A stretch of 63,983 bases of DNA, filler included, from Reclinomonas americana ATCC 50394 (lineage: Eukaryota): NCBI GenBank assembly GCA_048213135.1. It is 6 parts of 4 records of this genome, joined end to end, with 100 filler letters (N's around TTAATTAATTAA, not from the genome) between each part and the next. Parts side by side here need not be neighbours in the genome. Positions count along the whole stretch, not along the records: positions 1 to 17,898 come from PS015235.1; 5 more parts are not named here. One strand, 5' to 3'. Every line of letters begins with the position of its first letter. Within the stretch, counting starts at the first letter, position 1. The notes beneath the pieces are model-generated. The model did not search any database. It was given only the letters and a program-made list of their open reading frames with translations, and was not told the origin of the DNA. Both the position numbers and the translations under genes were made by a program. Below are positions 9,914 through 16,492 of this stretch, piece by piece.

Positions 9914-11002
9914 TCACAAATGCGACTCAGGGTCCACGCTGCGCCGATACATGATGGCCTCGGCCTCCTCGACAATGAAGCAGCGCAGCACCATCTCTGG
10001 CAGACATCGAGAATCCGGCCCCGCAATCAGCTGTTGCATCTCCTGCACCGCTGCAAGCACCTCTCGTGCTGCGCGGAGCTCTTTTCGCGCAAGGCCGCAC
10101 GGAGACGACCACACATGCACGACCCGGTCCTCTCCTCCACTCACAACGTGCTCACCATCCGCGGTGATGGCGACAGATAGCATCCGGTCGTCGGCGCGTC
10201 TCTCCATCCGTACCACTTCTTCTCCACTTGCCAATGACCACACTCGCACTGTGCCATCACAACTCGCACTCACAACGTGCCGCTCGTCGGGAGTAACGGC
10301 AAGTGATGTCACCCAGTCGCCGTGTCCTTTCAGCTGTCGCACCTCCTCGCCACTCGCCAGTGACCACATTCGCACAATTCCCTTACCGCCACCGAGAATG
10401 TACTCACCATCGGGAGTAACAACAACCGTCGGCACCTCTGTGGTGTGGCCCACAAACCGTCGCACCTCCTCCCCACTCGCGAGTGACCACACTCGTACAG
10501 TGCGATCAGTGCTGCCACTCACTACGAATTCGCCGTTGGGCGTGACGGCGACTGACCTTACCCACAAAGTATGCCCCTCCAAGCGTCGCACCTCCTCCCC
10601 GCTTGCCAGAGACCACACTCGTACTGTCTTATCGTCACTCCCACTCACAATGAAGTCGCCATTGGGCGTGACGGCAACAGTTCTCACCATTTGAGTGTGT
10701 CCCTCCAATCGTCGCACTTCTTCTCCGCTCTCCAGCAACCACACACGCAATGTGCTGTCGTAACTGCCACTCACAACGTGTTTACCGTCAGGAGCGACGG
10801 CAACAGATTCCACCCAGGAAGGGTGCTCGAAGCGTCGCACTTCCTCCCCTCTTGCGAGTGACCACATGCGCACGGTGTTGTCATAACTTCCACTGACGAC
10901 GTGTCGGCCGTCGGGAGTGACGGCGACACACGACACCGTATCGGTGTGACCCACGAGGCACTTGGTAGCGAAAAGAGAAGGGCGAGAAAGAGTGAGAGAC
11001 AT
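9914..11002 (-). CDS. Intronless 7-blade WD40 protein with conserved C-terminal helical tail, array copy 1
   Basis: Seven GH...V..V.V.PDG..VVSGS.D.TVRVW repeats followed by PCGLARKEL...SRCLPEMVLRCFIVEEAE. Start MSLTLSRPSLF assigned by homology to the other copies. Confidence 0.92.
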   Translation of the reverse strand: MSLTLSRPSLFATKCLVGHTDTVSCVAVTPDGRHVVSGSYDNTVRMWSLARGEEVRRFEHPSWVESVAVAPDGKHVVSGSYDSTLRVWLLESGEEVRRLEGHTQMVRTVAVTPNGDFIVSGSDDKTVRVWSLASGEEVRRLEGHTLWVRSVAVTPNGEFVVSGSTDRTVRVWSLASGEEVRRFVGHTTEVPTVVVTPDGEYILGGGKGIVRMWSLASGEEVRQLKGHGDWVTSLAVTPDERHVVSASCDGTVRVWSLASGEEVVRMERRADDRMLSVAITADGEHVVSGGEDRVVHVWSSPCGLARKELRAAREVLAAVQEMQQLIAGPDSRCLPEMVLRCFIVEEAEAIMYRRSVDPESHL

Positions 11003-11174
11003 GGGTGGACGTCTGTTTGTGCGCGAAAGGAAGATTAAGCGGGACACGTGACGCATGCGCATTGAGTTGACGACGCTGTGAGTAATTCATGCACCATGCC
11101 AGACTACTTCACAACTGCATTTTACTTGAAGCCGCGAGAGAGAACGCAAAAGAAAAAGAAACTCTCGCACAAGG

Positions 11175-12254
11175 TCAATAATGCGACTCAGGGTCGACAC
11201 TTCGGCGATATCCGATGGCCTCGGCCTCCTCAACTATGAAGCAGCGCAGCACCATCTCTGGAAGGCATCGTGGGTCGCCATCTTCGAAGGTCAGTTGCAT
11301 CTCCTGCACAGCGCGCATCGCCGCTCTCGCTGTGTGGAGCTCTTCGCGCGCGAGGCCGCACGGAGTGGACCACACTCGAACGATCTTGTCTGCACCCGCA
11401 CTCATTACGTGTTGACCGTCAGGAGTGACACTGACGCACCACACCCTACCCGTGTGTCCCTCCATCCGTTGCACTTCTTCACCGCTCGACAGTGACCACA
11501 CTCGCACTGTGCCGTCCCAACTCGCGCTGACAACGTGCCTCTCGTCGGGAGTGACGGCGAGTGATGTCACCCACGCAGTGTGTCTTTTCAACTGTCGCAC
11601 CTCCTCGCCGCTCGCCAGCGACCACATGCTCACTCTTCCATTGCCGCCACTCAGAATGTGCTCACCGTCGGGAGAAACAACAACCGTCAGTACTGCAATG
11701 CGCATCTCCATTCGTCGCACCTCCTCGCCACTCGCGAGTGACCACACTCGCACACTGCCATCATTGCTACCACTCACAATGAACTCGCCACTGGGAGAGA
11801 CAGTCACAGACCGCACCCAGAAAGTTAGTTCCAAGCGTCGCACCTCTTCTCCACTTACCAGTGACCACACGCGCACAGTCTTGTCACTGCTCCCACTCAC
11901 AACATGCTGAACATCGGGAGTCACAGCGACAGCACAAACCTCTTCAGTGTGCCCCTCCAACCGCCGCACCTCTTCTCCGCTCTCCAGTAACCATACACGC
12001 ACTGTGTTGTCGTAATTGCCACTCACAACGTGTTTGCCATCGGGAGTGACGGCGACAGACATCACCCATCCACTGTGTCCCTCCAAGCGTCGCACTTCCT
12101 CGCCGCTCATGGACCACACACGCACGGTTTTGTCATAACTCCCACTGACGATGTGTCGGCCATCGGGAGTGACGGTGACGGACATCACCGTATCAGTATG
12201 GCCCACGAGGCACTTGAAAGGGAGGAGAGAGGGCCGTGAAGGAGCGAGAGACAT
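11175..12254 (-). CDS. WD40 array copy 2
   Basis: 359-aa ORF with 7 WD40 repeats and the same C-terminal tail. Confidence 0.92.
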   Translation of the reverse strand: MSLAPSRPSLLPFKCLVGHTDTVMSVTVTPDGRHIVSGSYDKTVRVWSMSGEEVRRLEGHSGWVMSVAVTPDGKHVVSGNYDNTVRVWLLESGEEVRRLEGHTEEVCAVAVTPDVQHVVSGSSDKTVRVWSLVSGEEVRRLELTFWVRSVTVSPSGEFIVSGSNDGSVRVWSLASGEEVRRMEMRIAVLTVVVSPDGEHILSGGNGRVSMWSLASGEEVRQLKRHTAWVTSLAVTPDERHVVSASWDGTVRVWSLSSGEEVQRMEGHTGRVWCVSVTPDGQHVMSAGADKIVRVWSTPCGLAREELHTARAAMRAVQEMQLTFEDGDPRCLPEMVLRCFIVEEAEAIGYRRSVDPESHY

Positions 12255-12341
12255 GGCGAACGGAGTGTGCGTGCGTGCAACTGGAAACGAAGGTGGGGCC
12301 GCGAAGGTGATTTATGCAGGACGCGGACGCCTTGTGTCGAC

Positions 12342-12406
12342 GCTGTGAGCAAACGTGTTCGGTGTGCTGCCAGTAGAGAACATACACGCGGCCAGAATAT
12401 CACAGC
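12342..12406. promoter_or_regulatory. Conserved 65-nt intergenic element of the WD40 array (also 13635-13699 and 14940-15004)
   Basis: Near-identical block in three spacers, bounded by the inverted repeat GCTGTGA...TCACAGC, about 70-90 nt upstream of the ATG. Confidence 0.5.
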
Positions 12407-14870: not shown

Positions 14871-15069
14871 GGTGGTGGTGTGTGCACGTGGGGTGGACGG
14901 AAAGATGATTAATGCAGGACGCGGACGCCTTGTGTCGACGCTGTGAGCAAACGTGTTCGGTGTGCTGCCAGTAGAGAAAATACACGCGGCCAGAATATCA
15001 CAGCTGCATTTTTGCTTGACAAGCCGCGGGGATAGAACGCAAAGAAGAGAATCAAGACAAACTCACGAA

Positions 15070-16149
15070 TCACAAATGCATGTCGGGGTCCGCGCTTCGG
15101 CGATACTCGACGACCTCGGCCTCCTCGACAATGAAGCAGCGCAGCACTATCTCTGGCAGCCATCGAGAATCATCTTCGTCGTCAGCAACCCGCTGCATCT
15201 CCTGCACAGCGAACATCGCCGCTCTCGCTGTGTGGAGCTCTTCGCGCGCGAGGCCGCACGGAGTGGACCACACATGCACGGCCTTGTCCTCGCCGACGCT
15301 CACAACATGCTCACCATCCGCGGTGACGGCGACAGAGTACACATGGCCGGTGTGTCCCTTCATCCGCCATACTTCTTCACCACTCGCCAATGACCACACT
15401 CGCACTGTGCCGTCCCAACTCGCACTCACAACGTGCCGCTCGTCGGGAGCGATGGCGAGTGATGTCACCCATGCAGTGTGTCCTTTTAGCTGTCGCACCT
15501 CCTTACCGCTTGCCAGCGACCACATTTGCACGTGTCCGCCACCACCACTCACTATGTGTTGGCCGTCGGGAGTGACAACAATCGTCGCAGCAGCAGTGTA
15601 AAGCCGTCGCACCTGCTCTCCACTCGCGAGGGACCACACTCGTACAGTGAGATCATTGCCGCCACTCACAATAAACTCGCCATCGGGAGAGACGGCGACT
15701 GACCGCACCCGCAAAGTGTGCCCCTCCAAGCGTCGCACCTCTTCTCCACTTACCAGTGACCACACGCGCACAGTGTTATCACTGCTCCCACTCACAACGT
15801 GTTTACCACTGGGAGTGACGGCGACAGGCGTCACCCATCCAGTGTGCCTCTCAAAGCACCGCACTTCCTCCCCACTCTCCAGCAACCACACAATGGCTGA
15901 GTCGCGGCAGCAGCTCACAATGTGCTTCCCGTCAGGAGTGACAGCGACAGATTCCACCCAGGAAGTGTGACCCTCGAAGCGTCGCACTTCCTCGCCACTT
16001 GCCAGTGACCACACACGCACGGTCTTGTCATGACTGCCACTGATGATGTGTCGGCCATCGGGAGTGACGGCGACAGACATCACAGTACCAGTGTGCCCAA
16101 GCAGAGATTTGAAAGGGAGGAGAGAGGGACGGGAAGGAGCGAGAGACAT
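15070..16149 (-). CDS. WD40 array copy 5
   Basis: ORF from MSLAPSRPSLLPFK; 7 WD40 repeats plus tail. Confidence 0.92.
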   Translation of the reverse strand: MSLAPSRPSLLPFKSLLGHTGTVMSVAVTPDGRHIISGSHDKTVRVWSLASGEEVRRFEGHTSWVESVAVTPDGKHIVSCCRDSAIVWLLESGEEVRCFERHTGWVTPVAVTPSGKHVVSGSSDNTVRVWSLVSGEEVRRLEGHTLRVRSVAVSPDGEFIVSGGNDLTVRVWSLASGEQVRRLYTAAATIVVTPDGQHIVSGGGGHVQMWSLASGKEVRQLKGHTAWVTSLAIAPDERHVVSASWDGTVRVWSLASGEEVWRMKGHTGHVYSVAVTADGEHVVSVGEDKAVHVWSTPCGLAREELHTARAAMFAVQEMQRVADDEDDSRWLPEIVLRCFIVEEAEVVEYRRSADPDMHL

Positions 16150-16335
16150 GGTGAACGAAGTGTGCGTGCGTACAAGTGGAAAGGACTTAACGTGGGACAC
16201 TGGCGCATAGTGTCGACGCTTTGAGCAATTACTCGAGTGTTGCCAGAAGGGAGCGTGCACCCTGCCAGACTACTTCACAACTACATTTTACTTGAGGCTG
16301 CGGGAGTACAAACAAGAGCAAGAACTCTCAATCAG

Positions 16336-16492
16336 TCACAAACCGACTCTGGCCATGGGTCCACGCTTCGGCGATACACGACGACCTCGGCCTCCTCGAC
16401 AATGAAGCAGCGCATCACCATCTCTGGCAGGCATCAAGAATCGTCTTCGTCGTCAGCAACCCTCTACATCTCCTGCACAGCGAACATCGCCG
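16336..16492 (-). pseudogene. Truncated sixth WD40-array copy (tail only)
   Basis: Homologous to the tail (AMFAVQEM*RVADDEDDS*CLPEMVMRCFIVEEAEVVVYRRSVDP) with two in-frame stops; homology ends at a repeat-B copy. Confidence 0.85.

Follow-up and report, generated by a model that had tools for sequence, protein, structure and literature searches.

A multicopy WD40 propeller family with a diversifying top face and a constant C-terminal tail in Reclinomonas americana: a candidate library of intracellular detectors

We describe a gene family of Reclinomonas americana ATCC 50394 (assembly GCA_048213135.1) whose members join one WD40 propeller, conserved in its frame and diversifying on its face, to a constant helical tail. 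In our best explanation, to which we assign a probability of roughly 0.55, the family is an adaptor library in which each copy binds a different protein for a shared effector. The top face of each propeller would likely bind a different, probably foreign, cytosolic protein, and the tail would hand the bound protein to one shared effector. New specificities would arise from tandem duplication and recombination between paralogues and would then be held, because likely alleles retain their face.

A tandem array of propeller genes

The window—the whole stretch of 63,983 nucleotides analysed here—contains an array of the family with the following features.

9914–11002, minus strand: gene 1, 362 aa, seven-bladed WD40 propeller followed by a two-helix C-terminal tail
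11175–12254, minus strand: gene 2, 359 aa, source of the AF2 model
12467–13561, minus strand: gene 3, 364 aa
13770–14870, minus strand: gene 4, 366 aa
15070–16149, minus strand: gene 5, 359 aa
11178–11372, minus strand: tail of gene 2, ~65 aa (helix, acidic variable loop, VLRCF helix), without a Pfam family
16335–16492, minus strand: tail-only remnant interrupted in frame by TAG and TGA, with no blades upstream
11003–11174, 12255–12466, 13562–13769, 14871–15069, and 16150–16334: five homologous spacers of 172–212 nt
16498–16564, plus strand: direct repeat of the array's downstream flank, matching 9660–9702 (93%) and 9731–9758 (96%)

The earlier note on this DNA had claimed five intact head-to-tail genes at a period of about 1.25–1.3 kb and lacking a NACHT domain, and we recovered exactly this: five unbroken minus-strand ORFs, a measured period of 1261–1303 nt, and proteins of 359–366 aa wholly taken up by propeller and tail. 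All five proteins harbor seven PF00400 repeats, the genes are 71–74% identical to gene 1, and the binding-face motifs quoted in that note (nine on the GH side and eight on the D side, including NDG, RDN, HDK, and DDK) were found in the translations without exception. Two further claims stood in part. The "dead sixth gene" does carry two stops, but it is a mere tail fragment (92 nt of it are 92% identical to the tail of gene 5); likewise, the array is intronless in that each gene is a single uninterrupted ORF, whereas some other subfamilies carry one short 5′ intron, as read from eight gene starts. The claim that blade scaffolds are highly similar had to be given up, with blades inside a gene sharing only about 60% amino acid identity, that is, being moderately repetitive. 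Skp1 in this genome is an ordinary, intron-rich gene. The spacers presumably hold terminator and promoter, and the direct repeat suggests a duplication or deletion junction.

A multicopy family with mostly intact members

Exact matches to a tail-motif pattern, which recovers 110 of 127 known tails, numbered 649 + 582 = 1,231 genome-wide (reversed control: 0), a family far larger than the earlier note described. Since the assembly appears to contain both haplotypes, this corresponds to about 600–700 loci. A WD40 blade precedes 258 of 260 tails and 196 of 220 assessable copies have an uninterrupted reading frame of 280 aa or more; frameshifted copies and remnants also occur. Evidence of transcription comes from one copy outside the window's five, an EST-derived R. 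americana protein being identical to G000:C5977 over 116 aa (100%). One short frameless gene (C3337_4277) was excluded from the alignments.

Propeller fold and top-face variability

In the AF2 model of gene 2 (mean pLDDT 89), the propeller spans residues 11–296 with block pLDDT of 91–98, and Foldseek aligned the gene product model to solved propellers, such as T. curvata PkwA (5yzv), at a TM of at least 0.9. Both sequence and model place the proteins among predicted seven-bladed WD40 beta-propellers. With strands beginning at residue 11, neither a signal peptide nor a membrane span would fit. The repeats have a period of 126 in TRF (64–76% identity); blades inside one gene are 60–63% identical at the protein level, with a best nucleotide match of 86% over 90 nt. 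In the window's subfamily, where blade count is constant at seven, same-position blades of paralogues are 76% identical compared to 60% within a gene, and identity at four-fold sites is 0.73 vs 0.55. On concerted evolution the signs are mixed: paralogues are strongly mosaic, but blades in this subfamily retain their positional identity. The variable sites, which the earlier note had assigned to the propeller top face, map in the AF2 model to the d–a and b–c loops, and among 780 blades we counted 674 distinct four-residue top-face combinations.

The top face diversifies between paralogues

Selection was assessed in the window's subfamily (19 genes) and four others (22, 13, 8, and 6 genes), with subfamilies of fewer than six members excluded. 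In all five, top-face dN/dS reached 1.2–2.2 against 0.2–0.36 for the scaffold. For the window's subfamily, fixed-site models gave 1.39 for the top face vs 0.24 on one tree (LRT 23.6) and 1.2 vs 0.24 on per-blade trees (LRT 8.5), with 1.2–1.5 for the four top-face codons per repeat; in the other four subfamilies, the top face scored 1.57–2.19 on one tree and 1.34–1.86 on per-blade trees (LRT 9.7–97), and the six-position top-face class 1.3–2.2. The 35-blade alignment of the array that the earlier note had called for pointed the same way (1.36 vs 0.27, LRT 4.9). The purifying class was escaped by 37 of 42 top-face sites and by 47 of 238 other propeller sites. A recombination-aware M1a/M2a comparison was marginal in the window's subfamily (LRT 6.2, p 0.044), and null simulations on a single tree exceeded an LRT of 2.7 in 2 of 11 cases.

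Over the 32 closest pairs pooled, top-face dN/dS was 1.05. The 15 pairs of pS 0.05–0.15, which are probably allelic, scored 0.66 and the 14 most diverged pairs 1.28 (1.08 when the top face's own synonymous sites are used), arguing that the face diversifies between paralogues rather than alleles. Per-blade trees improved on one tree by 1,139 log units in the window's subfamily, and ancestry along the gene is mosaic, strongly so between paralogues. The earlier proposal of a birth-and-death family is supported, with dN/dS above 1 at the variable sites among paralogues in each of the five subfamilies.

A constant two-helix tail

A C-terminal tail of ~65 aa and two helices, overlooked in the earlier note, occurs in every copy. 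Its helices (298–322 and 331–353 in the gene 2 model) are predicted at lower confidence than the propeller. The tail core is near-invariant, with a tail dN/dS of 0.13–0.37; its conserved small and hydrophobic residues map to helix faces, and the charged E11, R43, and E48 show little or no variation in a set of 89 diverse tails, two of which stem from other organisms.

Searches with the tail retrieved no known family in Pfam, none of five candidates from a word-index search, no usable match in the ESM Atlas, and nothing better than E 0.33 when its profile was run against the PDB. Against 1.84 billion representative sequences, the profile had four matches, of which one, the PPR protein P0004, was dropped as spurious. 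The modelled tail, a helical pair of low pTM, does not allow box folds to be told apart: Foldseek returned no match at E ≤0.001, and the wide structure comparison (VIA wide) peaked at Z 6.3 with generic, uninformative helix pairs. A homodimer prediction scored 0.01, but was made without an alignment or folded controls, and so counts for neither side.

WSB-type proteins consist of seven WD40 blades followed by C-terminal SOCS-box helices, and the F-box and MATH-BTB expansions of nematodes and plants—large birth-and-death families—pair a constant docking module with a positively selected binding domain. The Reclinomonas family resembles the former in its seven blades and helical tail and the latter in its constant module, selected binding domain, and birth-and-death expansion; its tail, however, fits no full adaptor consensus. 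Using consensus patterns throughout, we found the F-box (through its second helix) and the Cul5 box LPxP in 0 of 265 tails each, the BC-box in only 8 of 265, and the WDxR/DWD box of DCAFs in only 3 of 198 propellers, while a Cul2-box-like hydrophobic spacing, a loose pattern, occurred in 174 of 265 tails. The Pfam F-box was absent from all five tails examined at E up to 10, and PF07525 (SOCS-box) had no match in this genome, which encodes three Skp1 paralogues and an Elongin C-like gene. As for the partner of the tail, a ubiquitin-ligase-type clearance machine engaged through a non-canonical box is a tentative candidate, and some other partner is about as conceivable; somewhat further down we rank NLRs contacted in trans and, at a similar level, a tail that is structural or pairs with itself.

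Comparison with known propeller families

The HNWD/NWD genes of Podospora anserina (HET-D, HET-E, HET-R) show positive selection on four top-face positions (PMC1805685) that flank the conserved strand-a residue and the b–c turn Asp (PMC1805685, PMC4986451), and HiC repeats are defined by at least 85% internal identity over 100 aa (PMC4986451). As the earlier note had suggested, our four sites agree by spacing with those fungal positions (PMC1805685). Both families combine WD40 blades selected at the same positions with pseudogenes and recombination, but the Reclinomonas proteins have no NACHT or HET domain and a single seven-bladed propeller, number about 600–700 loci instead of 10, reach about 60% internal identity instead of the 85% HiC criterion, and, unlike HNWD/NWD, carry same-position paralogue blades that are closer than blades within a gene, with likely alleles retaining their face. 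With no NACHT domain and low internal identity, the proteins are not HNWD members, and the closest-pair dN/dS of 0.66, the absence of homogenisation within genes, and the blade number, fixed at seven in the window's subfamily, argue against fungal-style allorecognition.

The highly or moderately repetitive WD40 (WRAP) propellers of prokaryotes (PMC5587647, PMC9218822) similarly combine conserved blades with variable hotspot positions; the present family, by contrast, belongs to a eukaryote, has multiplied in tandem to hundreds of loci, and is fused to a tail. Its nearest database propellers are 28–59% identical and lack the tail, and those with names come mostly from cyanobacteria, besides Bellilinea, Gemmataceae, an archaeon, and one fungus. 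A bacterial origin of the propeller is suggested only tentatively, since most matches are unnamed metagenome proteins. In largely open-access literature, searched without supplements, we found neither a published description of this family nor jakobid work on NLR or NACHT proteins.

Relation to the genome's NLRs and alternative explanations

The genome has at least 97 NACHT hits, and its NLRs, like the array genes, are long single ORFs, with a NACHT-pentapeptide-WD40 architecture that differs from the family in having ~14 blades (a count of 14 in the single NLR scanned), a P-loop domain, and another C-terminal motif. Nonetheless, all 15 NLRs fetched bear the blade/linker signature of the family, which was seen in 0 of 120 database relatives; the same positions vary in both kinds of blade; and NLR-to-stand-alone identity at four-fold sites (0.44) compares with 0.41 between NLRs and 0.26 by chance. 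From this common blade type, a putative immune link for the family gains independent support. Family genes lie in 3 of the 15 NLR regions, which were partly picked for adjacency, so that this is not evidence. ZAR1 and its ZRK partners provide a precedent for swappable specificity modules, and the propellers might, by the same logic, be detached sensors that activate or regulate the NLRs in trans once bound to ligand. We consider this unlikely: common ancestry is no proof of a common pathway, only 2 of 17 NACHT hits (contigs up to C63, judged by eye without a formal null) have a tail match no more than 15 kb away, and the tail matched neither the NLR C-terminal motif, which it resembles by eye (hhalign probability 0.1), nor the NACHT-pentapeptide core (0.2). 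Least probable of all would be a donor role, in which the stand-alone genes feed repeats into the NLRs by gene conversion and so diversify them, in the way Podospora NWD loci exchange repeats. Both families do draw on one pool of blades, but none of 124 NLR blades was at least 90% identical to any of 780 stand-alone blades (maximum 84%; 15 NLRs and ~200 of >1,000 genes), arguing against recent exchange within this sample, and the supposed donors are intact and under purifying selection.

The propeller might also act by itself, neutralising a foreign protein or toxin as a stand-alone binder or decoy, with a tail that is structural or self-pairing. Conserved residues on helix faces could simply pack, and the tail fits no adaptor consensus; yet three near-invariant charged residues would exceed what packing needs, and we hold such decoys to be rather improbable. 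A still poorer prospect is neutral or selfish expansion, in which copy number rises through tandem duplication and gene conversion, and the face varies for lack of constraint and not through selection for new specificities. Pairwise top-face dN/dS is about 1.0 overall, decayed copies are present, and three-base codon changes, which show a tenfold excess at top sites (44 of 1,266 vs 27 of 7,861), could come from patch conversion. However, dN/dS above 1 persists on per-blade trees in all five subfamilies, most copies are intact, and scaffold and tail remain constrained at 0.13–0.37.

Discussion

To our knowledge, the ways in which free-living, bacteria-eating protists sense invaders inside the cell are poorly understood. 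Here, a bacterivorous jakobid flagellate has hundreds of intact loci for a single binder scaffold that is diversifying and is related to its own NLR sensors. Should the adaptor-library reading hold, the family offers two handles, namely the constant tail for the shared effector and a face of six residues per blade for the ligands, and amounts to a natural collection of WD40 binders. A tail that turned out to be a novel ubiquitin-ligase box, or a domain for docking to NLRs, would carry those systems to a deep eukaryotic branch. More speculatively, and with the odds well against it, the genome of this early-branching protist may encode a split NLR system, in which ~100 or more NACHT-WD40 switches are complemented by at least 600 free, positively selected sensor propellers made of the same repeats, the propellers engaging a common effector by way of a new two-helix docking domain; if true, a single-celled eukaryote would possess germline-encoded recognition genes in numbers comparable to the NLRs of plants or the F-box proteins of nematodes. 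Judged from its sequences, the family likely serves R. americana as a library of intracellular detectors.

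An array of propeller genes with a common tail

The array comprises five unbroken minus-strand genes encoding 359–366 aa, with a period of 1261–1303 nt, 71–74% identity to the first gene and seven WD40 repeats in each. Variable motifs quoted in the earlier note were recovered in these genes; its "dead sixth" is a 158-nt tail remnant that carries two stops and lacks blades. A short stretch of the array's downstream flank recurs as a direct repeat and bounds the array. An AF2 model shows, with good confidence, a propeller of seven blades and then two helices; mapping the variable residues onto it, as the earlier note proposed, places them in three spots: the d-a loop, the beginning of strand a and the b-c turn. 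The four fungal positions in PMC1805685 fall on variable residues here when matched by spacing. The array has a collinear counterpart in contig C3337 (flank 96–98% identical), with three genes ~90–99% identical over most of their length and two slots at ~80%.

A second array, inverted and made up of ~12 copies of the same subfamily, lies ~32 kb from that of the window (contig C227, ~25,400–41,200; fetched regions L031 and L032), of which contig C668 looks like the other haplotype. Subfamilies on contigs C51, C56, C58 and C358 have a four-codon first exon and one 5′ intron. Other genes in the window are:

~28,000–38,700, minus strand, large intron-split gene with Ser/Thr/Val-rich beta-type repeats, probably a surface protein; 32358–33287 resembles 34684–35760 (internal duplication); no Pfam match in the one exon tested
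53682–54107, minus strand, GPS-motif protein
54739–55413, plus strand, ERCC1/Rad10
58512–59285, plus strand, DUSP-domain protein
59466–60587, minus strand, actin-like protein (by eye)
60774–61019, plus strand, ankyrin protein

Fetched region L033 holds long repetitive Ser/Thr/Ala-rich, adhesin- or fibre-protein-like ORFs (~4,700–9,400; contig C227:46,700–51,400) and an oxysterol-binding-like gene (~1,050–2,400; by eye).

All family copies share the ~65-aa C-terminal domain, which the earlier note had overlooked and for which no convincing Pfam match was found. Searching its profile against 1.84 billion representatives returned only three real relatives: one EST protein of Reclinomonas americana and two divergent, unnamed propellers. 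The EST protein is 100% identical to contig C5977, so at least one family copy is transcribed and the assembly is from R. americana or from something that cannot be told from it at this locus. Both divergent propellers are absent from the assembly (best full-length identity ~30%), and the tail is thus present in other organisms, where it sits on ordinary, non-repetitive propellers; a few similarly divergent tail-bearing propellers were found in this assembly too.

Family size

The tail core, searched for genome-wide as a degenerate DNA pattern, gave 1,231 exact matches (reversed control, 0), the count of members that the earlier note had in view. Since the pattern finds 110 of 127 known tails, the assembly should hold ~1,400. 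Many F-box and Skp1 matches came in pairs of equal score, and 11 aligned pairs, picked for that equality, are 85–96% identical. From these pairs and the C3337 counterpart of the array we infer an assembly that contains both haplotypes, which would leave ~600–700 loci. Paired loci of the assembly differ by 4–15%, introns and gaps included, suggesting either a diploid of very high heterozygosity or a genome that was duplicated recently. Fetched sequence contained 292 tails in 732 kb; a WD40 blade precedes 258 of the 260 tails with upstream sequence, and 196 of 220 assessable copies have an intact frame, in a sample chosen by similarity and hence biased toward intact copies.

Selection on the top face

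Selection was assessed with a custom GY94-type codon code, not PAML. For the window's subfamily (19 genes), M2a improved on M1a by 28 on one tree and by only 6.2 on per-blade trees; the latter gained 1,139 log units in fit over one tree, which points to extensive recombination. With predefined classes, dN/dS at the six top-face positions was 1.39 on one tree and 1.2 on per-blade trees (p ~0.002), against 0.24 for the scaffold on either; in 11 null simulations the LRT reached at most 5.4 and exceeded 2.7 in two. The four other subfamilies with at least six members gave top-face values of 1.57–2.19 on one tree and 1.34–1.86 on per-blade trees, all significant, and the 35 blades of the window, for which the earlier note had foreseen such an analysis, gave 1.36 against 0.27. 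Tree-free counts over the 32 closest pairs, with a top-face dN/dS of 1.05 overall, tell against positive selection: the ratio was 1.0 in the three closest pairs, 0.66 in 15 pairs at pS 0.05–0.15 and 1.28 in the remaining 14, which are the most diverged. We read this contrast between probable alleles and paralogues as top faces that would diverge after duplication and then come under constraint, as expected of distinct fixed specificities, not allelic incompatibility loci.

Kinship with NLRs

The genome has at least 97 NACHT matches, mostly in frames >1,000 aa. All 15 fetched NLRs combine a P-loop domain with WD40 blades of the stand-alone propellers' type, varying at the same positions; the one NLR scanned has 14 repeats, and the three sequences inspected show a pentapeptide-like stretch. 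A linker signature occurs in 15/15 NLRs versus 0/120 database relatives; judged only by the 30-residue blade core, the NLRs are no closer than several unnamed database proteins. Synonymous identity between NLR and stand-alone blades is 0.44, level with the 0.41 among NLRs and above chance (0.26), and no pair exceeds 84% identity; the two families thus share ancestry, with no recent exchange in this sample.

These NLRs (L190–L204, e.g. L194:1145–5407, contig C56) form a large intron-poor family, with cores 83–89% identical to the first and a layout of N-terminal head, NACHT, pentapeptide-like stretch, ~14 WD40 blades and conserved C-terminal motif.

Candidate partners and relation to known systems

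The proposed mechanism builds on four findings: conservation of the scaffold and tail, diversification of the face, a large number of intact copies and NLR kinship. In it, the stand-alone propellers would act as cytosolic adaptors, the variable face picking the target and the constant tail engaging a partner common to all copies. Cullin-ligase adaptors have a layout like this propeller plus tail. The genome encodes a divergent Elongin C-like gene and three Skp1 paralogues, the latter in two copies each (L142:1501–1872 on contig C46; L075–L081, L143–L146). By consensus patterns, the tail matches no F-box, BC-box, Cul5-box or DWD, and fits only a loose Cul2-like spacing; it is therefore probably no member of the cullin-adaptor boxes, and the function would at best be cullin-adaptor-like. 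Beside such an adaptor role, three readings remain: that an NLR is the propellers' partner in trans, that they are pure decoys, or that the family expanded neutrally.

The nearest named propellers outside the genome are mostly cyanobacterial, in agreement with PMC5587647 and PMC9218822. Literature searches, at the level of listings, found no published description of the variable-face WD40 family, which is real and large. Membership of HNWD was rejected. The family is a novel form of the diversifying-WD40 recognition theme.
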